A stretch of DNA of 64,000 bases from Patescibacteria group bacterium (GTDB lineage Bacteria > Patescibacteriota > Patescibacteriia > JBDRGY01). The stretch is taken from the NCBI GenBank assembly GCA_043817315.1, contig JBDRGY010000001.1, positions 78,702 to 142,701 of the forward strand, read 5' to 3'. A program made the position numbers and the translations under genes. This document shows positions 5,090 to 44,497 of the stretch, piece after piece. Below the pieces are notes generated by a model. That model saw only the letters and a list, made by a program, of their open reading frames with translations, made no database searches and was not told the DNA's origin. Each line of letters opens with the position of its first letter. Within the stretch, counting starts at the first letter, position 1.

Positions 5090-6043
5090 TTAAATCCAAC
5101 GTTTTTTTCTAAAGTAGAGAACCATCATCATAACGATGAAAGCGCTCATACCTATAATAACCCAGAAGTCATAAGGCTGTCCAATGAAAGGCATGTGACG
5201 AGTGTTCATGCCGAAGATGGAAGCGATCAAGGTAATTGGCAGTAATATAACCGAAATCATAGTCAGCAATTTCATTATCTCATTAAGACGATTACTGATA
5301 AGAGATTCGTTAGTTTGCTGTAAGGTTTCTATGGCTTCGCGGAAAGACTCCAGGTTGTCCCAGATGTCTTTATCAAGATTGATAATGTTGTCAAAATGGG
5401 TCTGTAATTTGTTAGGAATTACGTGGTTGGGTTTGCCGTCACGGCGACCTAGTAATTTCTGAATAGTATTCTTATGGGCTTGCATGATTTTTCTGAGGTC
5501 AGCAATGTTTTGGCGGATCAGCAATATCTCACCGACCATCCTACGTTCACTCGCCTGAAAGATGCTCTTTTTAACATTACTAATACCCAAGGAGATATGA
5601 TCTAGCATGGGAAAACAATGTACCAACAGTTTATTGATTACGTGATAGAGCATATGGACCGGACCTTGAGCCAGGCAGGCTTCTTTTTCATCCTGATTGG
5701 TTTGGCAGACATTTAGTAAATCGATTAGAGGAGCCAGCTCGTTGCGATGAACTGTAATCAGATAGTTCTGACCGATAAAAAAATCAACTTCAGATGGATA
5801 AATCTGTCTGTTCTGGCGATTATAAACAGGAAAAAGTAAAATCAAAAAAGCATAACCAGGATACTTTTCTACCTTGGGTCGCTGGGTAGGGGAGAGACAA
5901 TCTTTTAGATCTAATTCCTGGAAACTGAAGTTCTTGGCCAGATATTCCCTCTCCTCTGGGCCAAAATTTACAATATCTATCCAGCGATAGTTATTCAGTT
6001 GGACTTCACGAATATTTTTCATAAATATAAAAGGCGCTAACAA
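5090..6043 (-). CDS. corA: CorA-family Mg2+/Co2+ transporter. The start is TTG at 6043; an in-frame ATG lies at 6022.
   Basis: C-terminal two TM helices with the GMN motif (FGMNTRHMPF) and a long cytoplasmic N-terminal domain. Confidence 0.85.
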   Translation of the reverse strand: MLAPFIFMKNIREVQLNNYRWIDIVNFGPEEREYLAKNFSFQELDLKDCLSPTQRPKVEKYPGYAFLILLFPVYNRQNRQIYPSEVDFFIGQNYLITVHRNELAPLIDLLNVCQTNQDEKEACLAQGPVHMLYHVINKLLVHCFPMLDHISLGISNVKKSIFQASERRMVGEILLIRQNIADLRKIMQAHKNTIQKLLGRRDGKPNHVIPNKLQTHFDNIINLDKDIWDNLESFREAIETLQQTNESLISNRLNEIMKLLTMISVILLPITLIASIFGMNTRHMPFIGQPYDFWVIIGMSAFIVMMMVLYFRKKRWI

Positions 6044-6095
6044 AAGTAATTAGCACCCCATTTATCGTGTATTTCTACACCTTTATTCTATCTAC

Positions 6096-6124
6096 ATTAT
6101 AGCACACTTTAGCAATAATATCAA
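6096..6124 (-). promoter_or_regulatory. Sigma70 promoter for corA: -35 TTGATA, a 17-bp spacer ending in TGc (extended -10), and -10 TATAAT.
   Basis: The minus strand reads TTGATAttattgctaaagtgtgcTATAAT, with -35 at 6119-6124 and -10 at 6096-6101. It sits directly downstream of the lipoprotein terminator and about 50-70 nt upstream of the corA start. Confidence 0.55.
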
Positions 6125-6130
6125 GGTTTG

Positions 6131-6173
6131 AAGTAAATAAAGAGGGGGCGCTGGTAAGTAGCCAGTCGCCCCC
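6131..6173 (-). terminator. Rho-independent terminator of the GC-rich lipoprotein gene.
   Basis: The minus-strand transcript reads GGGGGCGACTGG-ctactta-CCAGCGCCCCC and is followed by UCUUUAUUUACUU. The GC-rich stem is 11-12 bp with one bulge and lies immediately after the stop at 6178. Confidence 0.65.
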
Positions 6174-6177
6174 GTTC

Positions 6178-7125
6178 CTAGTAGTTCTTGGCGCTGTCCA
6201 TGATGAGGACGACCTCGAACTGTTCAGTTCGAGATACTGTCTCGTCAATCACAGGCAAGCCAGTGTCCGGATTCGGAACGATACTTCCGTAACGAATCCA
6301 GAAGGTCATCAGAACCTCGCCCTGTCCGCTGTTCTTCTGCCGAAAGCGGTAGCGTGCGCTGTTATTACGCACCTCTCTGGGTTTCTCTCCACTAATTGAC
6401 CTTTCGATGGAGAGCACCCGCTCATGCTTGAGGGCATCAGGTCGGGGAATGATCTCGAACTCCTGCTCGCGGGTCCCGGCAGAAATAATCCAGTTGGGAC
6501 CCACCTCTACCCAGGTGTTGCGGGTGTGGGGAGCTTTGGCCAGAAGGGGAGAGAAGGGACTGAGTCGCCAGTGCTCGTTGTCGTTGAGCGTCTTGACGAC
6601 TGCGAAGATCCGTTCGATCCGCAGAACCTGCTCGCCACGTATCGGGTGGTTGGTCAGATCACGAGTCACCTGACCCATGGCGATTTCCACATTGACGGCA
6701 TGGATCCCATTGTCTCCGTAGTTACGGATCTCAAAGGGATATTCGTAGTCGCGATTGCGCCGCAACTTCTTGGCCTTGCCTCCGTCGATCCAGACCTTAA
6801 CGTAGAGTACGTCTTCACCGATCTTAGGCCGCGGAGTCACCACGAACCTCTGTCGTTTGACGTCAGCCTTGATCATGTAAAACATGTAGGGAGGCTCAAT
6901 AACCTCCTCGGCTACGGCAAAGGTGTGGTAGGTGTCTCCTTCCTTGGCCGCCAGATTAGACTGGCTGACAAAGGGGTTGACCTTTCGGCCAGGATACCTA
7001 ACCCCGCTGGGATCAGTGTAACGGTCACGCAGTAGCGGACCGCCAAGATTCAGAACAGCGCAGCCTGTGCTGGCAAAAGACGCCAGAATCAGGGCGGCAA
7101 TGGAAAGAACACGAAACAGTTTCAT
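6178..7125 (-). CDS. Secreted probable lipoprotein of 315 aa and unknown function. The gene is compositionally foreign: about 52% GC against about 39% around it, with GC-ending codons.
   Basis: Signal peptide MKLFRVLSIAALILASFASTGC with a Cys in lipobox-like position. Its own promoter, a perfect Shine-Dalgarno site and a GC-rich terminator are present. Codons CTG, GCC, CGC and GGC are used heavily, unlike in neighbouring genes. Confidence 0.7.
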   Translation of the reverse strand: MKLFRVLSIAALILASFASTGCAVLNLGGPLLRDRYTDPSGVRYPGRKVNPFVSQSNLAAKEGDTYHTFAVAEEVIEPPYMFYMIKADVKRQRFVVTPRPKIGEDVLYVKVWIDGGKAKKLRRNRDYEYPFEIRNYGDNGIHAVNVEIAMGQVTRDLTNHPIRGEQVLRIERIFAVVKTLNDNEHWRLSPFSPLLAKAPHTRNTWVEVGPNWIISAGTREQEFEIIPRPDALKHERVLSIERSISGEKPREVRNNSARYRFRQKNSGQGEVLMTFWIRYGSIVPNPDTGLPVIDETVSRTEQFEVVLIMDSAKNY

Positions 7126-7132
7126 GATTAAT

Positions 7133-7202
7133 CCTCCTTAGCTCGTGTTACCTCCACTTCAATCAAACATTGTATACTATCACATTTTTTCCAAAATGTC
7201 AA
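7133..7202 (-). promoter_or_regulatory. Sigma70 promoter plus consensus Shine-Dalgarno site for the lipoprotein gene: TTGACA-17-TAGTAT, with AAGGAGG 7 nt upstream of the ATG.
   Basis: The minus strand reads TTGACAttttggaaaaaatgtgaTAGTAT, with -35 at 7197-7202 and -10 at 7174-7179. The Shine-Dalgarno site is the reverse complement of CCTCCTT at 7133-7139. Confidence 0.6.
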
Positions 7203-7229
7203 TACCCACTAAATCTACAGCATCTCTGA

Positions 7230-7258
7230 TTGACCAATCGGCCAAAAAGTGCTATACT
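7230..7258 (+). promoter_or_regulatory. Sigma70 promoter TTGACC-17-TATACT, divergent from the lipoprotein promoter. It is the likely start of the long operon from 7278 to 28232.
   Basis: ttgaccaatcggccaaaaagtgctatact, with -35 at 7230-7235 and -10 at 7253-7258. The first ATG downstream is at 7278. Confidence 0.55.
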
Positions 7259-7277
7259 TAAAAGGTAAAATTCACAT

Positions 7278-7848
7278 TATGAACAATCAAGACGATATTA
7301 TTTTAGGAGGAGGCGGTCGGGAGCAAAAGGAAATTAATCCTGAAAAGAAAGTAATCCTACCATCGCAAAAAGAGCATCAGCTGGGTGTTAGAGTTGAGGC
7401 TGCTCCAGAAATAGCTACACCGGAACAGAAAGTGGAACAAGAAATCAGCCCGGAGCAAGAAAGGGAATTGGCTAAAGAAGCAGCTAAGCAGGAGGATAAA
7501 GAGAAAATCAGTACTGCCCCAGTACCAACTTCCCCTTCATCAGTTCAGCCAGCCCAACAACAACCCAAGACCGAAATGAGACGCAATATTGAGAAAATCC
7601 TGGCAGAAGATTTGGTGGAGATCTATAATAGTTTAAATGAAGAGGAAAAAAAGGAATTTAAAGCTGAAGGAGAAAGGGTAGCCTCCAAGATTGAGCAGAT
7701 AATGCAGCAAATGAAAATAAAGGCCAAAGAAGTACTAAAGCTGATTCGTGACTGGCTAAAAAAGATCCCAGGTATTAATCGTTTTTTTCTTATTCAAGAA
7801 GCCAAGATAAAAACAGACAGAATCCTGGCTCTAAAAGATAGGCAATAA
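7278..7848 (+). CDS. Hypothetical Glu/Lys-rich protein of 190 aa with a disordered N-terminal half. Its stop overlaps the next start (TAATG). The ORF track extends the gene to a GTG at 7249, which lies inside the promoter.
   Basis: ORF translationally coupled to the ATPase gene. Low-complexity composition rich in E, K, Q and P. No family recognised. Confidence 0.55.
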
Positions 7849-10400
7849 TGAACAGTCTGCCGTCAATTAACACTCCCAGTTTTTCTTGGGACACTATCTT
7901 TAATAATCAGATTTTTGTTATCGTAGCGACTTTAGTAGTCGTTATTTTTGTTCTCTGGTTAATGATATTTACTTTACGTAAAACGATTGCCAGGCAGCGC
8001 CGGCTTTCTAATACCTTTTCCATGGTAACCTTGATGGTTACTGTGCCCAAAGAAAGTCTGGATGAAGACGATGAGCGAAAACCGCTCGAGGAAAAATTGG
8101 CTGTTGCCGAAGCCTTTATGTCCACGGTCGGTGGCATGATCTCTCAAAAGGGGATCAGGGCGTTTCTCTTAGGCCGCTCTGACCACTTTGCTTTTGAGAT
8201 TGTTGCCAACAAAGGATTGATTTCTTTTTATGTCACTGTACCTTGCTATATGCAGCAGTATATGGAACAGCAGATTCAAGCCCAATATCACCGGTCCCAG
8301 ATTGAAGTGGTAGAAGATTACAATATTTTTACCCCACGAGGAGTTATCGAAGCCGCCTACCTCAAGCTGAAAAAGAGATCAATGTTCCCAATTTTAACTT
8401 ATAAAAAGTTAGGATCTGATCCTTTAAATTCCTTAACCAATGTTTTGAGCAAATTTCAGGAAGATGAAGGTGCTGTTCTGCAAATCATGGCCCGGTCTTC
8501 CCATCCGGCTTGGCACAAGGCTGGAGCCAAAGTAGCTACCGAGATGAGCCAGGGGAAAAATGTAAAAGATGCTATGAAATCCAGCAACCCAAGTATTTTA
8601 GGTCAGATTGGCAAGACTGCACTGGCCTCTACCAAGAAGAGTAAAAAAGACGATTACGAATATGATGAACCGAGACGTTTAACTCCCATGGAAGAAGAAA
8701 CGGTAAAGGGTTTGGAAGAAAAAACGGCTAAAGCGGGCTTGGATGTCAACATTAGAATCATAGTCTCTTCACCTGATGGTCAAAGAGCCAAGGCCAATAT
8801 TCGAAACATTGCTGATGCTTTTTCTCAATACAGCGGTTATGAGTATATCAACGCTTTCGTTAAAAAAAGAGTTTGGCGCAAGAGTAAAATTATCAGAGAC
8901 TTCATCTATCGCAATTTCTCTGAGAAGAATAAATTTATATTAAACGCCGAAGAGATAGCTTCCGTTTATCATTTTCCATTGCCCAATACAGAAACACCCA
9001 ATATTCGCTGGTTGGTCGCCAAGAAATCAGCCCCTCCGGTCAACATGCCCCAAGAAGGCTTGATCCTGGGTCGTAATTTCTATCGGGGCCTGGAGACTCA
9101 AATCCGCATTAAAAGAGACGACCGGCGTCGTCATATTTATATCATTGGTAAATCCGGTACTGGAAAATCTGTTTTAATTTCTTCAATGGCTATTCAGGAT
9201 ATTCAGAACGGCGAAGGAGTCTGTGTTGTCGATCCCCATGGTGATTTAATCGAATACATTTTAGCTCACATACCTAAAGAGCGAGCAGAAGACGTGGCCG
9301 TCTTTGCGCCGGCCGATATGGAAAAACCGGTTGGTCTAAATATGTTAGAAGCTGACTCGGTGGAAGATCAGGATTTTGCCATCCAGGAAATGATTGCCAT
9401 TTTCTATAAACTATTCCCGCCGGAGATGATTGGGCCTATGTTCGAACATAATATGAGAAACGTGATGTTGACCCTGATGGCCGACAAAGAAAATCCTGGT
9501 ACTATCGCCGAGATTCCCCGTATGTTTACTGATCCTGCTTTTCAAAAATACAAATTGACTAAAGTAACTGACCCCGTTGTTAGAAATTTTTGGGAGAAAG
9601 AGATGGCTAAAACTACCGATTTTCACAAATCCGAAATGTTGGGTTATCTAATATCGAAAGTAGGCCGCTTTGTCGAAAACGAGATGATGAGGAATATTAT
9701 TGGCCAACCCAAGTCCGGTTTTGACATCAGAGAGATAATGGATAAGCAGAAGATATTACTGGTCAATCTGTCTAAAGGTAAAGTAGGTGAGGTCAATAGC
9801 GACCTTCTGGGCTTGATTATAGTTTCCAAGTTGCAGATGGCTGCCCTCAATCGGGGTGATATTCCCGAGGAAGAACGTAAAGATTTTTATCTCTATATAG
9901 ATGAGTTTCAAAACTATGCTACTGACAGTATTGCCACTATTTTATCCGAGGCCAGAAAGTACCGTCTCAATCTGACCATGGCTCACCAATACATTGGGCA
10001 GTTAGTAAAAAATAATGATACCCAGATCCGCGATGCGGTTTTGGGCACCACTGGTACTATGGTGGCCTTTAAAGTGGGAGTAGACGATGCCGAGGTTATG
10101 GCCAAAGTGTTTGACCCAGTTTTTGACGAGTACGATGTGCTTAATGTTGAAAAGTTTACTGCCTACATTAAGTTACTGGTTGACAACCAGGCCTCTCGCG
10201 CTTTCAACATGCACACCTATCCGCCGGTGCCGGGTAATAAGGAGCTGGCTCATAAGATTAAAGAATTATCACGTTTAAAATATGGCCGACCCAAATCCAA
10301 GGTGCAGGCCGAAATCATGAATCGGTCGCAGTTGGGAGAACCCAGTAAGCCGTCACCATCTTTGGGAACGCAGGATTTAGGTCGGGAACCTAAGGCCTAA
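7848..10400 (+). CDS. VirD4/TraG/TraD-like type-IV coupling-protein-family P-loop ATPase (FtsK-HerA superfamily). It has an N-terminal TM helix and a unique domain of about 350 aa before the ATPase domain.
   Basis: TM helix IFVIVATLVVVIFVLWLMIFTL. Walker A IIGKSGTGKSVLISS, then VVDPHGD, Walker B FYLYIDEFQNY, and the TraG-D C-terminal-like motif LNLTMAHQYIGQL. This is 850 aa, the typical length of a coupling protein. Confidence 0.55.
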   Translation: MNSLPSINTPSFSWDTIFNNQIFVIVATLVVVIFVLWLMIFTLRKTIARQRRLSNTFSMVTLMVTVPKESLDEDDERKPLEEKLAVAEAFMSTVGGMISQKGIRAFLLGRSDHFAFEIVANKGLISFYVTVPCYMQQYMEQQIQAQYHRSQIEVVEDYNIFTPRGVIEAAYLKLKKRSMFPILTYKKLGSDPLNSLTNVLSKFQEDEGAVLQIMARSSHPAWHKAGAKVATEMSQGKNVKDAMKSSNPSILGQIGKTALASTKKSKKDDYEYDEPRRLTPMEEETVKGLEEKTAKAGLDVNIRIIVSSPDGQRAKANIRNIADAFSQYSGYEYINAFVKKRVWRKSKIIRDFIYRNFSEKNKFILNAEEIASVYHFPLPNTETPNIRWLVAKKSAPPVNMPQEGLILGRNFYRGLETQIRIKRDDRRRHIYIIGKSGTGKSVLISSMAIQDIQNGEGVCVVDPHGDLIEYILAHIPKERAEDVAVFAPADMEKPVGLNMLEADSVEDQDFAIQEMIAIFYKLFPPEMIGPMFEHNMRNVMLTLMADKENPGTIAEIPRMFTDPAFQKYKLTKVTDPVVRNFWEKEMAKTTDFHKSEMLGYLISKVGRFVENEMMRNIIGQPKSGFDIREIMDKQKILLVNLSKGKVGEVNSDLLGLIIVSKLQMAALNRGDIPEEERKDFYLYIDEFQNYATDSIATILSEARKYRLNLTMAHQYIGQLVKNNDTQIRDAVLGTTGTMVAFKVGVDDAEVMAKVFDPVFDEYDVLNVEKFTAYIKLLVDNQASRAFNMHTYPPVPGNKELAHKIKELSRLKYGRPKSKVQAEIMNRSQLGEPSKPSPSLGTQDLGREPKA

Positions 10401-28316: not shown

Positions 28317-31300
28317 ATGATTAAAAGGTCGCTTAACTATACCTTGATTATTTTGGCAATTCTTTGGACTGGAGTTGCCATTTTTTATTTTACCGATAAT
28401 ATTGCGGTCCAAGCAGCTGGCAACACTTATTATGTAAAAACCGATGGTAGTAATAGCAACAGTGGTATTTCCTGGAATCAAGCCTGGGCTTCTATTGAGT
28501 ACGGTATGAATCATATTAGTGGCGGTGACACCTTGTTAGTGGCTGATGGGGATTATTATGAAGCCGACTCCAGTCATGACTGGGGTATCGGTAACGGCAC
28601 TCCTTCCGGACCCAGTCCCGATCAACACACTATCATCAAAGCGGACGGTGACAGTGTCCACGTTTATAACAGCGATCAGCACGGTTTCTATCTGATCTCC
28701 AGCCCCAAACAAAATATTACCATTGACGGCTTTAACATTCATAACGATAATGGTGTCTGTATTTTTTTTAATTCCAGCAGTTCCCGCAACATCACCATTA
28801 AAAACAATAATTGTACCAGTGTAGGGGAGGTGATGAGGGGATCAATCAGCTTTGCTGACTATACGGGAACTGAATCCAGGAATTTACTGATTGAAAATAA
28901 TCAGATCAGAAACGGTTCTATTGGTATTGCCTCGGGCTCAACAGATTGCCAGGTTTTAAACAATACGATCATTCAGGATTATCCTGATCAGACCACTTAT
29001 GGAATTTCCATTGGTGGAACCTGGCCCGATTACTTAACTGAAGATATCTTAGTCAGCGGTAATACGATTATTAATATCAGAGGCAGCTCCGGTCATTCCG
29101 CCTCGGTCAGCCGGGCCCGTAATGTGACCTTCTCCTATAACACCTGGTATTTCCCGGTGGAAGCCATTATTTTCTGGCCAGATCCTTTGGTAGAAAATAT
29201 TTATGTTGACCACAATACCATTGTCGATGTCAGATCGGTTACTTTCACTTTGCCTTATCACGCTTCTGGGCACACCGGCATTGGAGACAATATTAGAATT
29301 ACCAATAATTTAATTGCCACTAGCCAAGATTGTGAATACCAAGGTGGAGCTGCTTTCCCCTTGGAAAATTTTCATGAGGATTATAACTATTACTATTCAC
29401 CACAAACAGTTGTTATTGATCACGAAGCCTGTCGGGCTGTTAATAGCGGCCAAAGATATTGCCCCACCATTGCTGATTGGCAGGAGGCAACAGAACTGGC
29501 GGGGCATCCCCTGGGTATTAATTCAGTAGATGATAATAGTGGTGGTACTAAATACGATATTTTTGAGGACCCGGAAAACTACGACTTTACTCCCAAAGCA
29601 GATTCTTGGATTTGTAATCCCGACAATTACGGTTCTGACGGGGAGCCGATTGGAGCCTGGCCCTGTGAAGGCGGTTCGCCCCCACCACAATGTACTGATA
29701 GCGACGGCGACGGTTATGGCGATCCGGCCAGTTCCGCTTGCGAATACTCTGAGTTGGATTGTGATGATGGAAATGGGAATATCAATCCGGGGCAAAGCGA
29801 AATTTGCGATGACGAAATTGATAATAATTGCGACACCAAAATTGATTGTATTGATCAAGAGTGTGCCAACGCTGAGCCTTGTGTTAACAGTGAAACCAGC
29901 GCTGTAACTTCATCTGATTTTTATGCTGATGAGCCAACTTTAAAATCGTTGGGTTTCAGATGGTATGTAGAAGGAGACGAGGACAATGATGCTCAAGTGC
30001 AGGTTCAGTATAAAAGATCGGTTGACAGCCAATACAAGCAAGCCCTGGAAATGAAAAGGATTAATAATGATGCCTGTGGTTATCATACCGAGATGTGGAC
30101 CACAGGTAATTTATTTGCCGGCAGTGTACTCAACCTCGAACCAGGCACTTCCTATGATGTCAGGTTTACCATGAGTGATCCTGATGGTGTTAGTGGCGAT
30201 ATAGTAAAGAATGCGACTGTCAGTACCAGATCGGAACCGCCGCGGCACCAGGGTAATAATACTATTGATGTTTATCCAGGAGATTCGCTGCTGACAGCTG
30301 CCCAAAATGCCCAACCGGGAGATGTCATCTTATTACATGAGGGAGTGCATGATTACAGCAGCGGGGGGACTATGAACCTAGGTTCAGTTCTATCTGGCAA
30401 GCAAACTAGCGAAGAGAATCCGATTGTAATTAGGGGAGTGGATAAGGATACGGTAATCGTTAACGGCCCTCACGGTAGTTCTTCGGCAAACTGCGTCCAG
30501 TCATTGATCAGATTTATAAATTTAGGCTCAAGTGACTATATTCATTTGGAAGACTTTACCATCAGGAATGCCTGTGTAGCTGTTATTGCCGAAAACGCCA
30601 AAAACCTGGTGGTCCGCAATATGAATTTTTTGGACGTTTGGGGTGGAGTCTGGGGACGAGTCAATTGGTACGGGCCCAATAATCCTTGGCAAGGAGACGA
30701 TGAAAACTGGTTTATAGTTGATAATGTCATTATCGGCAAAACAAACCCTTGGTTTCCCAGGAGCAGTGCCTACGGTAATAACGGAGGAGTCAGGGTCTAC
30801 GGTAAAGGCCACGTGGTCGCTTACAACACTATTAGTAACTTTTGGGACGGCATTACTTTACTAAACGATTATGATAGTGACATTCCAGATTCTTTCAGGC
30901 AAGATCCGGGACAACGATCTGTCGATTTTCATAACAATGAAATTTCTAACTGCATGGATGATGGAATAGAAACGGATTATGGATTTCAAAATATTCGAGT
31001 GTTCGAAAACAGAATCACTAATGCTCACGCCGGCATTACCGCCCAACCTGTTTTTGGAGGCCCGGTTTACATTTTTAAAAATGCCATTTACAACACCAAT
31101 GGAGTCAGTGGCTTTAAATTTCACAATAACCCCTCCGGCCTAGAGATTTTTCACAACACCTTGGCTGGGCATTGGTATTGGGGTTCGGACTGGGGTTGGA
31201 AAAATGTCAGGATGTACAACAATCTGATTTTTGGCGATGAAAATTCCGGAGGTCCGAAAGTCCGAACTGGTTCGCCACCTTCAGATACCAGGACCAAAAT

Positions 31301-31847
31301 TGATTATAACGGCTATAATCCCAATTCAGGAGATGTTATCAGATGGTGCAAGGATTTCAACGTAATCGAAGGCCAGGGTTGCAGTCCCTGGAGTTATTAT
31401 TCTTCATTAAGCGAATTCTATGGTGACACCGGGTTTGAGCAGCACGGGAAGACCTACAATTATAATGTTTTTGAAAATGCTAATGTTCCTCAGGGCACCT
31501 GGACGTATACGCCAGGCGAAAAAGATTTAACTCTGGATAATTCTGTTAATCCCAATCCCATAGACCAGGGATTGGTTTTGCCCAACATCAATGAAGATTT
31601 CTCCGGCAGTGCTCCGGATCTGGGAGCCTACGAATCTGGTCAGGACCTTCCTCAACTCGGACCGCGAGCAGACGAAGATTGTACGGAAAACTGGCAGTGC
31701 GCTGACTGGTCCGAGTGTTTAGAGGGTCAGCAAACCAGAGAATGTGTCGATACAAACAATTGTGGTACTTACGTCAATCAACCTGATTTGACCAGGGATT
31801 GTGATTCCACCCCGCCGCTCTCCGTCAGTAATCTAACAGCAATTTAA
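28317..31847 (+). CDS. Giant surface protein of 1176 aa. It has a TM anchor, an N-terminal beta-helix domain, one MopE-like DGDGYG Cys repeat, an FN3-like segment, a second beta-helix region and the C-terminal 4-Cys module.
   Basis: AAGNTYYVKTDGSNSNSGISWNQAW...GDTLLVADGDYYE. CTDSDGDGYGDPASSACEYSELDCDDGNGNINPGQSEICDDEIDNNCD. Later repeats NNEISN, ENRITN, KNAIYN and HNTLAG. Ends NWQCADWSECLEGQQTRECVDTNNCGT...SVSNLTAI. Confidence 0.7.
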   Translation: MIKRSLNYTLIILAILWTGVAIFYFTDNIAVQAAGNTYYVKTDGSNSNSGISWNQAWASIEYGMNHISGGDTLLVADGDYYEADSSHDWGIGNGTPSGPSPDQHTIIKADGDSVHVYNSDQHGFYLISSPKQNITIDGFNIHNDNGVCIFFNSSSSRNITIKNNNCTSVGEVMRGSISFADYTGTESRNLLIENNQIRNGSIGIASGSTDCQVLNNTIIQDYPDQTTYGISIGGTWPDYLTEDILVSGNTIINIRGSSGHSASVSRARNVTFSYNTWYFPVEAIIFWPDPLVENIYVDHNTIVDVRSVTFTLPYHASGHTGIGDNIRITNNLIATSQDCEYQGGAAFPLENFHEDYNYYYSPQTVVIDHEACRAVNSGQRYCPTIADWQEATELAGHPLGINSVDDNSGGTKYDIFEDPENYDFTPKADSWICNPDNYGSDGEPIGAWPCEGGSPPPQCTDSDGDGYGDPASSACEYSELDCDDGNGNINPGQSEICDDEIDNNCDTKIDCIDQECANAEPCVNSETSAVTSSDFYADEPTLKSLGFRWYVEGDEDNDAQVQVQYKRSVDSQYKQALEMKRINNDACGYHTEMWTTGNLFAGSVLNLEPGTSYDVRFTMSDPDGVSGDIVKNATVSTRSEPPRHQGNNTIDVYPGDSLLTAAQNAQPGDVILLHEGVHDYSSGGTMNLGSVLSGKQTSEENPIVIRGVDKDTVIVNGPHGSSSANCVQSLIRFINLGSSDYIHLEDFTIRNACVAVIAENAKNLVVRNMNFLDVWGGVWGRVNWYGPNNPWQGDDENWFIVDNVIIGKTNPWFPRSSAYGNNGGVRVYGKGHVVAYNTISNFWDGITLLNDYDSDIPDSFRQDPGQRSVDFHNNEISNCMDDGIETDYGFQNIRVFENRITNAHAGITAQPVFGGPVYIFKNAIYNTNGVSGFKFHNNPSGLEIFHNTLAGHWYWGSDWGWKNVRMYNNLIFGDENSGGPKVRTGSPPSDTRTKIDYNGYNPNSGDVIRWCKDFNVIEGQGCSPWSYYSSLSEFYGDTGFEQHGKTYNYNVFENANVPQGTWTYTPGEKDLTLDNSVNPNPIDQGLVLPNINEDFSGSAPDLGAYESGQDLPQLGPRADEDCTENWQCADWSECLEGQQTRECVDTNNCGTYVNQPDLTRDCDSTPPLSVSNLTAI

Positions 31848-31849
31848 AT

Positions 31850-34800
31850 ATGGCCCAAAAGACTAATAAATTAATTCAAGTGTCAATTCTAACAGCCGTA
31901 ATTATTATTGGCTGTTTTCTTGTCCTGATGAATGAAAGAGATCAAAAAACTGGAGCCAGGGCCGTTGGAAATACCTACTACGTTAAAACCGATGGCAGCA
32001 ACGGTAACAGTGGCACCTCTTGGGATCAAGCCTGGAGTTCAATCGAATATGGGATAAATAACATTAGCGGAGGGGACACGCTCTTGGTAGCAGACGGTGA
32101 TTATTATGAGACAGAAGCCGGGAATGACGGTCGAGGAATCGGCGTTTATACCAAAGCGGGAATAGACCAAGATTACCCCACGGTCATAAAAGCAGCCGGG
32201 AATAATGTTCATATGTACACCAGCGACGCTCACGGATTCTATTTTTTATCAGGGCTCAAGAATTACATCACTCTAGAAGGATTTAACATTCACAATGAAA
32301 ACGGTTCATGTATTTGGGTAAATAAGGGAAGTTCTTCTTATATCACCATCAAGAATAATAAGTGCCTAGAACGAGGTGAAGTAAAAATCTCGTCAGGCGG
32401 GGAACGTAACTCTCATCATCATATTATCGAAGGTAACTACATAAAAGATTCAGGGATCAGTATAGAAGCCGGTAACTATGAGGTTCAGATTATTAATAAT
32501 GTAATAGAAAGAGTTAGTGATTCCGGAGGGAGTATAGGGATTTCTGTGGGCGGTCCAGGTGTAGCGATTACCTATCAGGTAGAGAATGTTTTGGTGCACG
32601 GTAACACATTAATCAATAGAACAAACTACGGCAGTCACGCTGGATCGATAAAAAATGGCAAGAACATAACTTTTTCCCATAACATTTGGTACCACACTTA
32701 TGATGCCATTGCTATCTGGTCCAGAGATTATACCGAGGACGTTTATATCGATCATAATACTTTAGTCTATTCTGGAAAAGCAACGTTTTTTCCTGATACT
32801 GATTCTTACGATCAAGATTGGTATCGTTTTTACAATCTCAATTTCACTAATAATTTGTACGCCAAATCCGCCCATAATAAATTCAGAGGCGACGACTTTT
32901 TTCCTTTAGAAGAACTGTATTCTGATTATAACTATTATTTTCACCCGGAAACCCACGACAGCGGTTGGCAGGTAATTGATACTCACATCATCCGTCATAA
33001 CAACTGTCCAAGCAGCAAGTGTAATACGATAGAGCAATGGAGAGCAGCTACTGCCGGACATCCTGATTACCCGGGTGGGCTGGGGGCCCATTCAGAAGAT
33101 GAGCATGATGCTGGATTGGACCTCTATGATTTATTTGTTGATCCTGATAATTACGACTTTACTCCCAAGTCTGATTCTTGGATATGTAATCCGGACAATT
33201 ACGGATCAGACGGACAGCCTATCGGAGCTTTGCCTTGCCCTGGTTCCCAACCGCCATCCTGCAATGATGATGACGGTGACGGCTATGGCAGCCCGGCCAG
33301 TGCCAGCTGCGATCATCCAGGGCTTGATTGTAATGATAACAACGGCAATGCTTGGCAGAATCTAACGGGCTATCCTGATGTTGATGAGGATACTTATTAT
33401 TCAGAGGATTCGATCCAAGTTTGCTCGGGCAACAGCCTGCCTGCTGGTTACGCAGTGTCCCAGGGCAATGATTGTGATGACTCTAATTCTAATATCAATC
33501 CGGGAACCACTGAAGTATGTACTGGCAATAAAGATGATGATTGTGATGGCTCTGTTGATTGTGACGATTCGGACTGTCAAAATGATCCTGATTGCCAAGC
33601 TCCAGGAGGGTCAGGGGAGTCTTATCAAGGATTCGGGGCAGTGACCTCAGGCGGAGAAGGGCAAACTGAATATCATGTTACCACTCTAGCTAATAGTGGA
33701 GCTGGCTCATTAAGAAGTCTTTTGGAAGGAGGGGCTTCCAATAGATATATTATTTTTGATGTTGCCGGAACAATTTTCTTAGATACCCAATTAGTCGTAT
33801 CGGGCCATCACATTACCATCAACGGATCATCGGCTCCGAGTAGCGGCATTATGATTCAGGCTGGTAACAATAGTTATAACGATGCCCTGCTGGGAATACA
33901 AGGTCACGACATTATCATTAATAATATCCACGTCAGAGACAACAGGACCGGAGTGCCATCAGACAATTCAGCTGACAACATCAGAGTTATCGGATCAGGG
34001 GCCTACAACTTAATATTTGACCACATCTCCTCGTTGGATAGTAACGATGGAAATCTAGACCTGACACAAGGAGTCCATGATATTACTGTCCAGTACTCTC
34101 TTTTGGGCAATAACGTCAAAAACCAGTTGATTAAATACCCCGAATCAGCTGGACCCTATAATCTTTCTTTGCATCACAATCTTTATATCACCAGCACCGA
34201 AAGACAGCCCCTGCTTTTTAATGTTAACCTGTTCGATTTTGTTAATAATGTGGTTTACGATTGGGCCAACGCTGGCTCAACCCTGGAAAATGGATCTCAA
34301 GGGAATTTCATTAAAAACTATTATTTGAGTACCAGGGCCAGTAAGGACTACAAAGCAGTTTGGGACAAAACCGGAACTAACTATGTTTATATGGAAGATA
34401 ATTTCATTCCGGCGGCCTGTACCACTTCTACTAATCATGCCGAATATCAGGCCCCAGATGTCACCACTACTAGTTACCAACAGGCAGCGGTGGAGGTGAC
34501 CAATCAAGTCGGCGCCTTACCCCGCACAGCTCATGAACAGTCTTTAATCGATACTTTTGCCGATGAGTTTCCCAGTTGTGATAATAACTCAGCTCTCAGT
34601 GAAATCTGCCAATGCGGCAGTGGGATGGCTTACCAGGGGTATTGCTGCTCTGGAGTTTGGCAATCTGTTCCCTGTGGTGAATGTCAAGAAGACTGGGAAT
34701 GCACTGATTGGTCAGATTGTATCGAGGGGCAACAGACCAGAGAATGTACTGATTTAAATTCTTGCGGTACAGAAATAAATAAACCGCCAGAACTGCAAGA

Positions 34801-34975
34801 TTGCGAATGCGAAGAAATTTGGCAGTGTACTGATTGGTCAGAATGTATAAATAACCAGCAAACCAGAGAATGTGTCGATATTGACAATTGTGGTACTTAC
34901 GTCAATCAACCTGATTTGACCAGGGATTGTGATTCCACCCCGCCGCTCTCCGTCAGTAATCTAACAGCAATTTAA
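31850..34975 (+). CDS. Giant surface protein of 1041 aa. It has a TM anchor, a beta-helix domain, MopE-like Cys repeats, a pectate-lyase (PL1)-like domain and two C-terminal 4-Cys modules. It is a paralog of the 28317 and 34978 proteins.
   Basis: N-terminus almost identical to the 28317 protein (VGNTYYVKTDGSNGNSGTSWDQAW). PL1 motifs GSLRSLL, IIFDVAGTI, HHITINGSS, NLIFDHISSLDSNDGNLDL and HHNLYITSTERQPLLFNVNLFDFVNN. Its last 40 codons are identical to those of the 28317 gene. Confidence 0.7.
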   Translation: MAQKTNKLIQVSILTAVIIIGCFLVLMNERDQKTGARAVGNTYYVKTDGSNGNSGTSWDQAWSSIEYGINNISGGDTLLVADGDYYETEAGNDGRGIGVYTKAGIDQDYPTVIKAAGNNVHMYTSDAHGFYFLSGLKNYITLEGFNIHNENGSCIWVNKGSSSYITIKNNKCLERGEVKISSGGERNSHHHIIEGNYIKDSGISIEAGNYEVQIINNVIERVSDSGGSIGISVGGPGVAITYQVENVLVHGNTLINRTNYGSHAGSIKNGKNITFSHNIWYHTYDAIAIWSRDYTEDVYIDHNTLVYSGKATFFPDTDSYDQDWYRFYNLNFTNNLYAKSAHNKFRGDDFFPLEELYSDYNYYFHPETHDSGWQVIDTHIIRHNNCPSSKCNTIEQWRAATAGHPDYPGGLGAHSEDEHDAGLDLYDLFVDPDNYDFTPKSDSWICNPDNYGSDGQPIGALPCPGSQPPSCNDDDGDGYGSPASASCDHPGLDCNDNNGNAWQNLTGYPDVDEDTYYSEDSIQVCSGNSLPAGYAVSQGNDCDDSNSNINPGTTEVCTGNKDDDCDGSVDCDDSDCQNDPDCQAPGGSGESYQGFGAVTSGGEGQTEYHVTTLANSGAGSLRSLLEGGASNRYIIFDVAGTIFLDTQLVVSGHHITINGSSAPSSGIMIQAGNNSYNDALLGIQGHDIIINNIHVRDNRTGVPSDNSADNIRVIGSGAYNLIFDHISSLDSNDGNLDLTQGVHDITVQYSLLGNNVKNQLIKYPESAGPYNLSLHHNLYITSTERQPLLFNVNLFDFVNNVVYDWANAGSTLENGSQGNFIKNYYLSTRASKDYKAVWDKTGTNYVYMEDNFIPAACTTSTNHAEYQAPDVTTTSYQQAAVEVTNQVGALPRTAHEQSLIDTFADEFPSCDNNSALSEICQCGSGMAYQGYCCSGVWQSVPCGECQEDWECTDWSDCIEGQQTRECTDLNSCGTEINKPPELQDCECEEIWQCTDWSECINNQQTRECVDIDNCGTYVNQPDLTRDCDSTPPLSVSNLTAI

Positions 34976-34977
34976 AT

Positions 34978-37944
34978 ATGGCCCAAAAGACTAAAAAATT
35001 AATCCATCTATCTGTACTTACCGCAATTTTTATGATCGGTAGTATTATTGTCCGGATGGATGAGATTGATCAAAGTACTGGAGCCTGGGCAGCAGGGAAC
35101 ACCTACTACGTTAAGACTGATGGCAGCAACAGCAATGGCGGTACCTCTTGGGATCAAGCTTGGAGTTCTATAAATTACGGTGCCAATCGGTTATCACCGG
35201 GAGATACTTTATTAGTGGCCAATGGAACTTACAACGAATCGCGTATCACCAGAGATATGACATCAGGTACTGCAGATAATCCGATTACCATCAAAGCTGA
35301 TGGCAGTAACGTTATTATTAACAGTGACAGTCACGGCTTTTGGTTGCCTGGTGGAGGCAGCTATATCACCATTGAAGGTTTTAAAATTTATCCTTCAGGA
35401 TCATGCATACTGGCCTATTACCGGATAAATGGTATGGATGGCATTACCATAAAAAATAACAGTTGTTATGGAGGAGGTATCAGTTGGCAAGAAGACGAAC
35501 AAACAGTAGATTTGGCTTCGGGAGGAAATACGATCGAGGGAAATTATCTAGAAAACGCTTCTATTGGTTTATCGGGTGGGGTTTTCGATACAATAATAAG
35601 AAATAATTATATTTTATATCATGAGTACGGAACTTGCAGGGGAATCTGTGTTGGTCATGGGGGTGTAGATTCAGATAAGCCGAGTGCTTCAGATATACTC
35701 ATTACAGAGAATACAATAATCAATACCCAGTATTTTCCTTTAAAACACACTTGTACTCTAAAGAAGGTCAGAAACGTTACTTTCTCCAATAATATTATTT
35801 ATGGCAAAAGAGATTTTTATATCTGGGGCTACCCCGATTCCGAACATATCACGATTGATCACAATACCTTTATTGACCAAAATGAAGTATCCGTTGCTAT
35901 CGCGGAAGATAGTTCACCACATAGCTTCAATCATGTAACTTTCACCAATAACTTATTTGCCGAAACCAGCGCTCCCTGGTATGGTGGGGCTTATCTTCCA
36001 ATTAGTGAACTAACTGCAGACTATAACTATTATTTCAATCCAATTAACGATGGAGTAGTCTTCCACTCCTTATGTCCCCACTCCGGAGGTCCTCACCACG
36101 CTAAATGCTATACCTTGCAGGAGTGGCAAACAGCTACTGCTAATGCCGGATATCCTCAGGGTGTGCATTCAGCAGAAGATCATAGCGGAGCCACGATTGA
36201 TGATTTATTGGTTAATCCGGCCAATTACGACTTTACCCCTAAGAACGATTCCTGGATTTGCGATCCGGCCAATTACGGCTCGGATGGGCAACCCAGAGGA
36301 GCTCTACCTTGTTCTGGTTCTGAGCCGCCAACTTGTTATGACAATGACGGGGACGGTTACGGCAACCCAGCCAGTTCGGGTTGTGAGTATCCCCAGTTAG
36401 ATTGTAATGATAATAATGATAGCGTTTGGCAGAATCGAACGGGCTATTCTGATAACGATGGTGACACCTATTATGCAGAAGATTCGATTCAGGTCTGCTC
36501 AGGCAATAGCTTGCCGGCAGGCTATCAAGCCAGTCAGGGTAATGATTGCGCCGACGCTAATCCCAATATCCATCCTGGGGCTACAGAAGTCTGTACCGGC
36601 AATAAAGACGATGATTGTGATGGAAGTGTTGATTGTGACGACTCAGATTGTCAAAATGATCAAAATTGTCAAACTCCATCTGGTCCGTCCGGTTCCGGTG
36701 GGTCTTATGAAGGGTTCGGGGCCGATACCCCTGGCGGAGTGGGACAAACAGAATTTCACGTTACCACGATAGCCGATAGCGGAGCCGGATCCTTGAGAAG
36801 TCTTTTGCAGAGTGGTGCCTCCAATAGACAAATAGTATTCGACGTTAACGGAACCATCCAACTTCAGAGCCGACTTACGATAAGCGGACATCATCTAACC
36901 ATTGATGGTACTACACCATCAGGCAATCCGATTCAGATTCAAGCAGCCAGCACCAGTCTTAATGCCGCCCTTTTTAACGTAACAGGAAATGACATAATAT
37001 TTCATAATATTAGTATGAATGATGTTAGACAGATTTCCGGGGATAATTCCGCTGACAATTTCCGCATAACTGGTCCTGATGCTTACAATATCGTAGTCGA
37101 TCATTGTACCTTCACCCGTTCCCAAGATGGCAATTTGGACATTATTCAAGGAGCCCATGACGTCACTATCCAGTGGACTATTATGGGAGACAATGTTAAA
37201 AACCAATTAATTAAGAATTGGCAGGCAGGACCGCCCCCGCCATACAATTTAACTCTTCATCATAATTTATATCTCCAGGGCGATGAGAGAAACCCACAAA
37301 TCTATGAGTCAGCTCTTTTTGACATGGTAAATAATGTAGTATACGGCTGGGCAGGAAATTATGGTACATATTTGGCCAATGGATCAGTGGGAAATTCGAT
37401 TAAGAACTACTATTTGGTTGACGCTGGTAGTGATGGCAGTGATGCGGTAATAATTATTCCCGATACAGATAATGTCTATATGGAAGGAAATGTACTGCCG
37501 GCCAACAATCAGGATATGGGCACTGCTACAAGTAGGTTTACTACACCGTTACTCTCTTCCGAAACAGATGCCGAGCAAGCTTTGCTTGAAGTAGTTAATG
37601 GGGCTGGTTCCTATCCCCGCAATTCCACTGAACTAAGTTTGATCAATAACATCTTAGACGAGTTCTCCCAATGCTCCAATAATCAACAGATAGCCACTGT
37701 TTGCTCCTGTGGAGCAGGATTGTATGATTCCGGCTATTGCTGTTCGGGTAATTGGCAGTCAGTACCTTGCGGCCAATGTGAAGAAGACTGGCAGTGTACT
37801 GATTGGTCAGAATGCAATAATAACCAGCAGGCTAGGGAATGTGTTGATCTGAACGAATGTGGTACCTATGTTAATCAACCGGATTTGGAAAAGGATTGTG
37901 ATTCTACCTCTCCGGGAGCGGTAATTGATTTACAAACAAATTAA
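34978..37944 (+). CDS. Giant surface protein of 988 aa with a TM anchor, a beta-helix domain, MopE-like Cys repeats, a PL1 pectate-lyase-like domain and a C-terminal 4-Cys module.
   Basis: AAGNTYYVKTDGSNSNGGTSWDQAW. PL1 motifs GSLRSLLQSG, IVFDVNGTI, HHLTIDG, NIVVDHCTFTRSQDGNLDI and HHNLYLQGDERNPQIYESALFDMVNN. Ends CEEDWQCTDWSECNNNQQARECVDLNECGT. Confidence 0.7.
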   Translation: MAQKTKKLIHLSVLTAIFMIGSIIVRMDEIDQSTGAWAAGNTYYVKTDGSNSNGGTSWDQAWSSINYGANRLSPGDTLLVANGTYNESRITRDMTSGTADNPITIKADGSNVIINSDSHGFWLPGGGSYITIEGFKIYPSGSCILAYYRINGMDGITIKNNSCYGGGISWQEDEQTVDLASGGNTIEGNYLENASIGLSGGVFDTIIRNNYILYHEYGTCRGICVGHGGVDSDKPSASDILITENTIINTQYFPLKHTCTLKKVRNVTFSNNIIYGKRDFYIWGYPDSEHITIDHNTFIDQNEVSVAIAEDSSPHSFNHVTFTNNLFAETSAPWYGGAYLPISELTADYNYYFNPINDGVVFHSLCPHSGGPHHAKCYTLQEWQTATANAGYPQGVHSAEDHSGATIDDLLVNPANYDFTPKNDSWICDPANYGSDGQPRGALPCSGSEPPTCYDNDGDGYGNPASSGCEYPQLDCNDNNDSVWQNRTGYSDNDGDTYYAEDSIQVCSGNSLPAGYQASQGNDCADANPNIHPGATEVCTGNKDDDCDGSVDCDDSDCQNDQNCQTPSGPSGSGGSYEGFGADTPGGVGQTEFHVTTIADSGAGSLRSLLQSGASNRQIVFDVNGTIQLQSRLTISGHHLTIDGTTPSGNPIQIQAASTSLNAALFNVTGNDIIFHNISMNDVRQISGDNSADNFRITGPDAYNIVVDHCTFTRSQDGNLDIIQGAHDVTIQWTIMGDNVKNQLIKNWQAGPPPPYNLTLHHNLYLQGDERNPQIYESALFDMVNNVVYGWAGNYGTYLANGSVGNSIKNYYLVDAGSDGSDAVIIIPDTDNVYMEGNVLPANNQDMGTATSRFTTPLLSSETDAEQALLEVVNGAGSYPRNSTELSLINNILDEFSQCSNNQQIATVCSCGAGLYDSGYCCSGNWQSVPCGQCEEDWQCTDWSECNNNQQARECVDLNECGTYVNQPDLEKDCDSTSPGAVIDLQTN

Positions 37945-37963
37945 TAATTACTATAATAAAATT

Positions 37964-40900
37964 ATGAAAGAACAACAAGTTAAAATCAGAACAAAGGAGG
38001 CGATTGGGCTAGCCAGCCGGATAGAGCTTTATATCGGAATCATCGCTGCTTCCACAGTGACCATTGTGGTGATCGTGATGACGCTGGCTCCACAATTTAT
38101 TATACCTACTATCCAGCTGCCTGGAATTTTGCTGTGGGACGAAACCAATTCGGTCATTTTAACCTGGACCGCTCCTGGTGATGACCTCAACATTGGTACG
38201 GCCACTTCTTATGACATTCGCTATGCCACTAGTCCAATCACCGAAGCCAATTGGAGCAGTGCTATCGAAGTAGTTGGTGAGCCCGATCCCCAAGCGGCCG
38301 GCACCGAGGAATCTTTCCAGGTTACTGATTTAACTCACAATACCAGTTACTACTTTGCGCTAAAAGCGGTAGATGAGGCTGGTAACTGGTCCGAGCTTTC
38401 TAATATTGCCACCAAGACGACTCTTTGTGAAGAATCATGGTCCTGTACCAGCTGGTCAGATTGTTCTGATGGCTACCGCACCAGAGAATGCACTGATATG
38501 AATGATTGTGGGACCTATGTTGATCAACCCGATATGAGCCAAATCTGTGTCTGTAATGACGGAGATGGAGACGGTTACGGTAATTGCCCAGAATGCGGTA
38601 GAGACTATAATTGTATTTTTGAAGGAGATGATTGTAACGATAATAACGGCAATGTCTGGCAATACCTAAACGGCTATCCCGATGCTGACAGCGACAATTA
38701 TGATTCTGAGATTTCGGAACAGATATGTTCCGGTGATAACCTGCCCGGCGGCTACACCTATCTAGAGGGCGATGACTGTAATGACAGTAATCCCAATATT
38801 AATCCGGGCATAGCCGATATCTGTGAAGACGGGGTTGATAGCGATTGCTCCGGAGCTGATGCTGAATGTGCCTTATGTCAAAATGGACAAATAGTACCGG
38901 CCGGTTGTCAGTGCGGTGGAAGTAATTATTATGAAGGTCATTGTTGTGATGACGTTTGGCAGACCGAACCTTGTCTCACTGTAGAATGCTCTGATGGTGA
39001 CGGGGATGGATATGGTGTCTGTCCTGAATGTGGCACTGACTATAATTGTGACTACGAAGGTGATGACTGTGACGATACCAATCAAAACGTAAACCCGGGC
39101 ACTACGGAATCGTGTGCCAATGAAATCGATGATGATTGTGATGAGCTTGTCGATTGTAACGATGGAATTGATTGTTCAGGTAATGCAGCCTGCATCTGTG
39201 AAGAAGATTGGTCCTGTACCGATTGGACGGCCTGCAGCAACGGATATCAGACCAGGGAATGCGTTGATCTCAATCAATGTGGCACTTATACCAATCAGCC
39301 AGATCTGACTCTTGAGTGTCAGTGTACAGACGTTGATCAGGACGGTTACGGAATCTGTCCGGAATGTGGCCTTGACTACGGCTGTGACTACCAAGGAGAA
39401 GATTGTGATGATTATAACAACAGCGTTTGGCAATATCTGAACGGCTATCCTGATGCCGATAGTGACAACTACGATTCCGAAATTCCAGAACAACTTTGCA
39501 CCGGCGATAACCTGCCCAGTGGCTACACCGGTACAGTAGGTGATGACTGCAATGATGATAACCCCCAAATCAATCCGGGCTTAGCTGATATTTGTGAGGA
39601 CGGCATTGATAATAATTGCTCCGGAGAAGACACTAACTGTGCCTTATGCGAAAGTGGTCAAATATCATCGACGGGTTGTCAATGCGGCGGGACCAATTAT
39701 TACCAAGGTCATTGTTGTGATAATGTCTGGCAGTCTGGACCTTGTCCTAATATAGTATGTTCTGATGTTGATCAAGACGGCTATGGTACCTGTCCGGAGT
39801 GCGGAACAGATTATAACTGTGATTATGATGGAGACGATTGTAATGATTCCAATCAAGCGGTAAATCCGGGGGCTACCGAAGCTTGTACTAATGACATTGA
39901 TGATGATTGTGATAACTTAATAGACTGTAATGACGAAATTGATTGTAATCAAGACCCAATCTGTATAGATAATAACGGTTGTGAAGAAGAATGGTATTGC
40001 TCGGATTGGACAGCCTGTCAACAAGGACAGCAATCCCGTGTCTGTCTTGATCTCAATCAATGTGGCACTATCGCTGAGAAGCCGCTTGAATTACAATCAT
40101 GTGTTTGTAACGAAGCTTGGTCCTGCACTGAATGGTCAGTTTGTGTTAAAGGAAAAAAGTCACGAGTCTGTGCCGATTTGAACAGTTGTGGCACTGACAC
40201 CAATCAACCGGACGAAAGCCAGAATTGTCAGGTTCCCGGTGAACCAACCGAGCCCACAGAACCAACCGAGCCCACAGAACCAACCGAACCGACAACTCCC
40301 TGTGAAGAAGGCTGGGAGTGCACTGATTGGTCTGCTGAATGTATCGATAGCCTGCAGACCAGGACCTGCACTGACACCAATAGTTGTGGTACAGAAACAT
40401 ACAAGCCAGGGGAGAGCCGCGAATGTGATGTTGTTGGTGGACCCGAAGACTTACCGGATATTGAGTGGAAAGAGACTTTCATCATAACGGCTACCAACGA
40501 AGGAGTCAGCCCTCAGATTCGAATCTTTAATAGAGATGGTAAGCTCCAGAGCGAGTTCTACGCTTTTGAAGAAAGCCACATTGGCGGCATCAACGTTGCT
40601 GCTACCGATTTGGGTGGTGACGGAATATCGGAGATTGTGGTAGGAGCCGGAGAAGGTTATTATCCTGTCGTCAGAATTTTCGATGCTCACGGTTATTTAA
40701 TAAACAGCTTCCTAGCCTACGATGAAGGATTTCGTGGAGGAGTGTCTGTGGCAGCCGGTGATCTGGACGGTGACGGCATAGCCGAGATTGTTACTGCCCC
40801 CTATTCCAACGGGGGTTCCAATATTCGTATCTTTGGCTACCGTGATGGAGTTTATCGACCGGTTATCGAGAACTTCTTTGCCTATACGGTCCATTACCGC

Positions 40901-44405: not shown

Positions 44406-44421
44406 CTTTGCGCCGGAGCAT

Positions 44422-44451: not shown

Positions 44452-44497
44452 AGTTAGAGAGTTTACCAAACCTTCTCTATTTGCTATAATTTGTGAT

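Follow-up and report, generated by a model that had tools for sequence, protein, structure and literature searches.

The 64,000-nucleotide stretch of contig JBDRGY010000001.1 from a Patescibacteria group bacterium (hereafter the window) carries on its minus strand, between the genes for CorA and for a 189-aa protein, a GC-rich lipoprotein gene (6178-7125), which is framed by its own promoter, Shine-Dalgarno (SD) site, and terminator. This cassette is probably a native, vertically inherited Patescibacteria gene, encoding a membrane-anchored and fast-evolving lipoprotein, with a GC-rich composition that has been maintained. A first-pass annotation of the sequence had taken it for a recent acquisition or for an assembly chimera; the former reading was contradicted by an orthologue of equal GC content that a related genome (L001) carries at this site, by synonymous saturation between the two, and by the lack of a donor and of mobility features, and the latter by collinearity of the cassette in two independent assemblies of that relative (L001 and L161).

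Genome contigs were scanned using the adjoining type IV coupling protein (T4CP)-like ATPase as query, giving 80 loci (L001 onward). The gene order of L001, Dus-unknown-AAA-CorA-[lipoprotein]-189aa-T4CP, was fully syntenic with the window, with neighbors 54-83% identical, and the slot exactly between CorA and the 189-aa gene was occupied by a minus-strand gene for a 320-aa lipoprotein, with 52-56% GC (0.54) as against ~37% in the flanks and 0.40 over the locus. The two lipoproteins were aligned end to end at 22-26% identity with an invariant lipobox T-G-C, and the regulatory DNA was also alignable, consisting in L001 of TTGACT-17-TGcTAGTAT, a similar leader, AAGGAGG-7-ATG, and, beyond the stop codon, a GC-rich hairpin and U tract. 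Another, independent assembly of the L001 lineage (L161) was 99.92% identical over 5.1 kb, cassette included, with 4 single-nucleotide polymorphisms, one in the lipoprotein gene (changing one residue) and three outside. The compositional step, taken by itself, would fit a GC-rich fragment of another organism joined into the contig during assembly; this is barely credible, since L001 and L161 are collinear with the window across both junctions, the GC-rich segment corresponds exactly to a single open reading frame (ORF) with promoter, SD, and terminator of host type around it, and the gene sits on a 321-kb contig. Public records label contigs with this locus as 'Pirellulales bacterium' (L001) or 'uncultured Gammaproteobacteria bacterium' (many of L002-L080), labels that probably reflect mis-binning or mislabelling.

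In the flanking genes, the proportion of differing synonymous sites (pS) between the window and L001 was 0.67-0.83, and 63% of four-fold sites in identical residues differed, against a ceiling of 73.5%; the four-fold sites of the lipoprotein gene were saturated between the two genomes (0.71), with a GC content at third codon positions (GC3) of ~0.65 in both copies. Given this synonymous saturation, no foreign composition could have persisted passively. Amelioration was estimated by F81-type decay with a bootstrap interval: a compositional deviation shrinks to ~0.38 of its starting value per lineage, and a passive remnant would need an ancestral GC3 of 1.10 (95% bootstrap interval 1.00-1.30), which is impossible. 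Because the four-fold sites are saturated and GC3 is ~0.65 in both copies, the coding composition of the lipoprotein gene is stationary, at a gene-specific level, and is not a passive leftover. The protein changed 5-16 times faster than its neighbors, with a nonsynonymous divergence (dN) of 0.6-0.99 vs 0.05-0.25, and, within clades at least, descent is vertical.

A recent horizontal transfer out of a proteobacterium-like donor, still unameliorated, would explain the atypical GC content, codon usage, and SD, features that by themselves are the classic marks of transfer. It is very improbable in view of the orthologous cassette of the same composition in a genome at synonymous saturation, the lack of homologues in other lineages and of mobility features, and the strong SD, which is a conserved slot trait across the clade. 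When the cassette was tested as a transferred islet, atypical composition was found; absence at the site in relatives was not (present in L001 and L161, absent in L134), and neither donor homologues nor mobility signatures were found, nor did an unameliorated remnant explain the composition.

The gene had been described as GC-rich in an AT-richer region (~52% vs ~39%), with use of CTG, GCC, CGC, and GGC codons, and both statements held when GC and codon profiles were computed along the window. Measured GC content was 54.9% for the gene and 41.5% for the window, the gene being the GC peak among all 948-nt windows of the 64 kb (next maximum 49.5%; z = 3.7); its GC3 was 0.658, vs 0.28-0.51 in 36 other long ORFs, and by codon-usage log-likelihood it was the one clear outlier among the window ORFs (z = -6.95), with CTG, GCC, CGN, GGC, CCC, and ATC codons enriched. 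The excess affected every synonymous class, in the window gene and the L001 gene alike; in the window gene, the C fraction of NNY codons was 0.67 (other genes 0.31), the G fraction of NNR codons 0.77 (0.35), the CGN fraction of Arg codons 0.86 (0.48), and the CTN fraction of Leu codons 0.91 (0.47). The GC excess of this gene is a general GC pressure. Codon optimization based on tRNAs in an AT-rich genome would give a different pattern from a uniform GC rise, and translational optimization of this type was judged unlikely because NNR codons and first-position synonymous classes were also GC-raised; the window held neither ribosomal genes nor other highly expressed reference genes by which expression-linked codon usage could be calibrated.

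The GC-rich stretch extended over ~6130-7110 only, taking in the terminator hairpin and stopping just inside the start codon, and was thus confined to the coding sequence (CDS) and terminator; promoter and leader had a host-like GC content of 33-35%. Mean folding energy over 60 nt was -16.9 kcal/mol for the lipoprotein CDS vs -9.3 +/- 1.4 kcal/mol for other window transcripts, and that of the start region -14.5 vs -5.1 +/- 4.2 kcal/mol for other window genes, so that the lipoprotein transcript is predicted to be far more structured than any other of the window. Antisense coding was considered for a plus-strand ORF (6424-7035, 203 aa) and rejected, as its 211 codons compared with 214 +/- 47 in synonymous shuffles and the frame was not conserved in L001.

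Homologues were sought using a word index of 5.8 billion proteins, exhaustive HMMER searches of 1.84 billion cluster representatives, and a profile built from the window and L001 proteins. The only matches were P0001, which is the window protein itself (a hypothetical protein of a Patescibacteria metagenome-assembled genome), and P0002 from the L001 lineage; neither the 5.8 billion proteins nor the 1.84 billion representatives held a homologue outside these two lineages, and none was found among viral contigs or PDB sequences, so the donor lineage that the first-pass annotation proposed to trace did not appear in any collection. Pfam (nothing above threshold), NCBIfam, PHROGs, and PADLOC gave nothing significant for the lipoprotein. 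No second copy, paralogue, or silent cassette of any part of the gene was found within the window. Hypermutation of the diversity-generating retroelement type, or by way of silent cassettes, was rejected, given the lack of repeats and paralogues in the 64 kb and the distribution of L001-L161 differences, of which one falls within the gene and three elsewhere.

All the expression signals named in the first-pass annotation were recovered (Table 1). The TTGACA-17-TAGTAT promoter was read directly and found by promoter scan (10/12 matches), with a 17-nt spacer and a TG-extended -10 element. An SD of sequence AAGGAGG lies at 7133-7139, 7 nt ahead of the ATG, and among real gene starts in the 64 kb the lipoprotein gene alone had a GGAGG-type SD: none of the 36 other long ORFs had one at its start, and the other GGAGG-type matches were all inside larger ORFs, in agreement with the claim that SD sites are almost absent elsewhere. 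The lineage of the window is SD-poor, strong SDs finding almost no other use in this clade. Across the window, GGAGG was three times commoner on the plus strand (69 vs 22). The GC-rich hairpin terminator had a folding energy of -23 kcal/mol (z = -5.07 vs shuffles; z = -5.5 for the L001 analogue) and was followed by a U-rich tract. Promoter-like matches alone were not rare (11 vs 5.7 expected in 3.5 kb); the complete signal set recurs in the L001 cassette. A sigma-70 promoter, an SD, and a terminator, as expected of a monocistronic unit, could be read in both the window and L001, and the element is, on this reading, a self-contained promoter-SD-CDS-terminator cassette, predicted to be monocistronic.

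Within the leader, a second GGAGG-like motif was observed at 7143-7156 (GTGGAGGTAAC), with a counterpart in L001 (~9312-9320, TGGAGGAAC) and another in the L025 leader; in several slot-gene leaders it lay 30-45 nt upstream of the start codon, and no upstream ORF followed it. A standby ribosome site is one possibility, chance another. A hairpin sequestering the SD by pairing of the leader with signal-peptide codons looked plausible in single folds and was rejected, as it did not exceed codon-shuffled controls at 20 loci (mean z = 0.04, p = 0.84). Rfam gave no match over 5900-7400, the leader included.

Table 1. Position, strand, and basis of assignment of the features of the lipoprotein cassette and its surroundings, in window coordinates.
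Feature	Position	Strand	Basis
Lipoprotein CDS, 315 aa	6178..7125	minus	composition, TGC invariance with L001, AlphaFold2 model
-35 hexamer TTGACA	7197..7202	minus	direct reading, promoter scan (10/12 matches)
Extended -10 TGaTAGTAT (hexamer TAGTAT 7174-7179)	7174..7182	minus	direct reading, promoter scan
5' leader, ~40-48 nt, host-like GC	7126..7173	minus	direct reading, comparison with L001
Putative intrinsic terminator: hairpin GGGGGCGACUGG...CCAGCGCCCCC (6173-6144) and U-rich tract (6143-6130)	6130..6173	minus	fold
Predicted beta-sandwich domain 1, residues ~79-190	6556..6891	minus	internal duplication, AlphaFold2 model (all-beta), PRPD/K motif
Predicted beta-sandwich domain 2, residues ~204-315	6181..6516	minus	internal duplication, AlphaFold2 pLDDT 70-90
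Whole cassette relative to the L134 empty site	6125..7229	minus	comparison with L134, promoter scan
CorA promoter, one cassette bound	6096-6124	minus	promoter scan, comparison with L134
Promoter of the 189-aa gene, other cassette bound	7230-7258	plus	promoter scan, comparison with L134
Partner operon, divergently transcribed: 189-aa protein (7279-7848) and T4CP/VirD4-like ATPase (7848-10400)	7279..10400	plus	Pfam

The encoded protein begins with a signal peptide (residues 1-21, 7063-7125, MKLFRVLSIAALILASFA), in which K2 and R5 precede a 13-residue hydrophobic stretch, a layout shared with L001. The lipobox of the window protein, A-S-T-G-C22, follows a relaxed pattern (Ser at -3) and, like the signal peptide, was judged by eye; that of L001 is the canonical L-T-G-C20. 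The earlier description as a secreted lipoprotein of unknown fold is consistent with this signature, and no family was recognizable in the libraries. The genes lgt and lspA were not among the Pfam-annotated genes of the window. A presumably flexible linker of ~60 residues (23 to ~80), modelled at very low confidence, leads to two domains that resemble each other (Smith-Waterman score 77 vs 29 +/- 4.8 for shuffles), with a PRPD/K motif common to both domains of the window and L001 proteins. Foldseek searches against the PDB returned tandem FN3/Ig-like proteins at a probability of ~0.98, with TM-scores of only ~0.2; the protein thus looks like a membrane-anchored lipoprotein with two tandem beta-sandwich domains of ~105 aa, a resemblance of fold class and not of family membership. 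A match to DUF1573 (PF07610) reached 12 bits (E = 0.22), below the 26.1-bit Pfam gathering score.

More distant Patescibacteria were surveyed in 141 non-redundant loci from genome and metagenome scans. Immediately upstream of the 189-aa gene lay CorA in 35 of these loci and a minus-strand lipoprotein of 140-320 aa in at least 16 (~22 with manual additions). The slot was empty in many genomes, so the lipoprotein is accessory at most to the T4CP-like system. An SD of at least 5 nt preceded all 16 slot lipoproteins, vs 15.7% of other ORFs at the same loci, which were given an equally generous choice of start codons (P ~1e-13). Nearly all slot genes had TTGACA-17-TGnTAnnAT with a leader of 45-60 nt, the TGnTAnnAT motif being present upstream in at least 19 loci, and as CorA and the 189-aa gene have the same promoter style, the cassette promoter is native in type. 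GC3 exceeded the locus mean in 14 of the 16 slot genes (mean +0.113, Wilcoxon p = 0.0008), and slot GC3 tracked host GC3 with r = 0.80 when the window and L001 were left out; this scaling is that of a native gene with an offset, unlike imports from a fixed donor.

Occupied loci formed coherent clades on the T4CP tree, and homology among slot proteins was detectable only between nearest T4CP neighbors, following the T4CP phylogeny. Lipoprotein identity was 30-34% between loci with T4CPs 89-92% identical, 21% at a T4CP identity of 83%, 22% at 81%, 27% at 79%, and 43% at 75%. Across loci, genes with a 7-nt SD had a mean GC3 z of 0.88, vs -0.04 for genes with no SD (p = 2e-4), values that are suggestive of a link of strong SD and GC3 to expression. 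Individual genes combining a 7-nt SD with raised GC3 were a type IV pilin-like gene with an N_methyl motif (L135 3587-3922, z = 4.6), a secreted ORFan (L061 4363-5157, z = 8.3), and DapB (L049 16501-17256, z = 4.2).

Recurrent allele replacement was weighed as another origin of these patterns, with the conserved flanks serving as recombination anchors, the coding part being swapped in from a GC-richer, unsampled pool, and GC-biased gene conversion (gBGC) possibly contributing. It would account for a hyperdivergent CDS between conserved regulatory flanks, for GC boundaries that coincide with CDS and terminator, for a composition that, at each of the three codon positions, is like that of ordinary genes in a ~55% GC genome, and for the variable occupancy of the slot. 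It is nonetheless unlikely: no member of such a pool was present in the 5.8 billion proteins, the 1.84 billion representatives, or the viral contigs, the window holds no silent copies, the two L001-lineage strains differ by one residue, detectable homology tracks T4CP phylogeny, and slot GC3 scales with host GC3.

Several observations weigh against native, vertical inheritance with maintained composition, or limit the evidence for it. Support for the junctions comes from other assemblies (L001 and L161), and the amelioration estimate rests on a simple decay model. An excess of dN over synonymous divergence (dS) was not shown for the lipoprotein gene, dS being saturated even in the closest pair, so that dN/dS is not estimable. 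The structure models are of low confidence, with an AlphaFold2 predicted local distance difference test (pLDDT) score of 53.7 (70-90 for domain 2) and of 47.7, and adding the second sequence to the alignment gave no better model. The GC3 offset of the window and L001 genes (+0.27 to +0.29) lies ~2.6 sd above that of other lineages (+0.09). Links between slot-lipoprotein clusters were weak by hhalign (E = 0.003-0.5) and homology of the window/L001 protein to other clades was not demonstrable; independent origins of the lipoproteins in the same slot are possible. The proposal that strong-SD genes form a class of envelope proteins was not supported, as the set was heterogeneous and not enriched in hydrophobic N-termini or signal peptides. 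Finally, the slot is empty in L134, with CorA 71% and T4CP 73% identical to the window, which leaves room for a gain in the window/L001 ancestor: at L134 640-800 the CorA promoter region abuts the promoter of the 189-aa gene, with ~130 bp between the genes and no lipoprotein gene.

Such an ancient acquisition, from a GC-rich donor into the CorA/T4CP intergenic region and with the composition later held by selection, would agree with the empty site in L134, with the size of the window/L001 protein (~315 aa, two domains, vs 140-190 aa for most other slot proteins), with a GC3 offset far above other clades, and with the absence of demonstrable homology to other slot proteins. It is considered quite unlikely. 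Donor homologues, insertion scars, and mobility genes were lacking, promoter and leader are native-like, and other clades share the slot, orientation, SD, and lipoprotein nature; a maintaining force would be needed in any case. On a neighbor-joining T4CP tree (no support values), L134 fell within the window/L001 clade, and this nested position suggests that its empty site is a secondary loss rather than the state before a gain.

Upstream of the cassette in window coordinates, and on the same strand, lie genes for the dihydrouridine synthase Dus, a protein of unknown function, an AAA ATPase, and CorA. No tRNA or mobility gene flanks the cassette, whose immediate neighbors are CorA and the T4CP operon, and its borders carried no direct or inverted repeats of note. 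The T4CP-like ATPase of the divergent operon (850 aa) matched Pfam T4SS-DNA_transf, TrwB_AAD_bind, DUF87, and TraG-D_C, and its pairing with the 189-aa gene was kept in 73 of the 80 genome loci, where the C-terminal half of the 189-aa protein was found. VirB4, VirB6, and VirB8 domains or genes were absent from the Pfam-annotated neighboring genes. Thousands of VirD4-like genes, mostly distant from virB4 and possibly exapted, have been described in Patescibacteria (PMC12102498), and the window T4CP, without nearby virB genes, agrees with these 'orphan' T4CPs. AT skew was strongly positive (up to 0.37) at 7200-7800, where the N-terminal half of the 189-aa protein is encoded; that half contains a low-complexity Glu/Gln/Lys/Pro-rich segment and is poorly conserved among lineages. 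Many large secreted proteins are encoded beyond the T4CP gene; downstream of the operon, four tandem genes (28317-41422) encode secreted proteins of ~1000-1170 aa, two of which (31850-34975 and 34978-37944) are 50% identical and share the same 20-nt upstream sequence, the array being one of giant, paralogous surface proteins. CorA has a second paralogue (44408-45421), placed directly after tRNA-Gln(ctg) (44334-44406), the sole tRNA of the window.

If the cassette is a native gene held at its own composition, the lipoprotein may be exposed at the surface, under diversifying or very relaxed selection, at a host-cell or phage interface, and may work with the adjoining T4CP-like system, as their adjacency and divergent promoters would suggest. 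Some directional force acting on transcript or locus would keep the gene GC-rich. Selection favoring an mRNA that is stable, structured, and well expressed is the most likely candidate, and gBGC, if the locus recombines, the alternative. A structured start region could then be offset by the strong SD, in a genome where other genes start in unstructured, AT-rich sequence. A tentative extension, held with low confidence, is that the gene-specific GC equilibrium (GC3 ~0.65 vs ~0.37 for the genome) and the sole strong SD of the region reveal a regime of its own, in which expression depends on the SD, within otherwise SD-poor Patescibacteria, and that this regime serves a hypervariable surface lipoprotein partnering an orphan T4CP-like ATPase.

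Hypervariable surface lipoproteins are known from wall-poor or host-associated bacteria, as Vlp/Vsa of Mycoplasma and Osp/Vls of Borrelia. With these the window lipoprotein shares the lipobox anchor, extreme sequence divergence among close relatives, and a strong expression signal of its own; unlike them, it is single-copy, in a fixed syntenic slot, and GC-rich relative to its genome, has no sequence or family relation to them, and lies in a window without tandem repeats, phase-variable tracts, or silent cassettes. Low-GC O-antigen and capsule clusters of enterobacteria likewise stay compositionally atypical over long times and are diversifying surface loci between conserved flanks, whereas the present locus deviates upward in GC, consists of one ~1-kb gene, and is stationary at synonymous saturation. 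A fast-evolving lipoprotein beside an ATPase gene of the type IV secretion system (T4SS) family also recalls T4SS-associated lipoproteins of the VirB7 type and the entry-exclusion lipoproteins TraT and TrbK, to which no sequence similarity was found; in contrast to VirB7 (~50 aa, in a virB-type operon), the protein has 315 aa and two predicted beta-sandwich domains, with no virB4, virB6, or virB8 nearby. The predicted all-beta, two-domain architecture is like that of the BIg domains of the adhesin SiiE and of cytokine-receptor ectodomains, which were the best Foldseek matches, at ~10% identity and a TM-score of ~0.2 from a low-confidence model, a resemblance of fold class. The lipoprotein belongs to no known family and is, in kind, a fast-evolving, putatively surface-exposed lipoprotein, the unusual part being its lasting compositional equilibrium at the level of one gene.

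Atypical GC content, codon usage, and a strong SD are routinely taken as evidence of transfer, a reading that fails here and cautions against calling transfer or chimeras by composition alone. Because the anomaly is conserved in an orthologue at synonymous saturation, some active force must keep this one gene at its composition. Were that force selection on mRNA, the locus would exemplify the making of a high-expression gene in a reduced genome that is AT-rich and poor in SDs; were it biased gene conversion, it would reveal recombination at work on a surface locus that diversifies in an epibiont. The locus could serve as a natural test of which of the two, selection or biased gene conversion, determines GC content in small-genome bacteria, and the lipoprotein, lineage-restricted, fast-evolving, and encoded beside a widespread and unexplained orphan T4CP, is a candidate for host or phage interaction.

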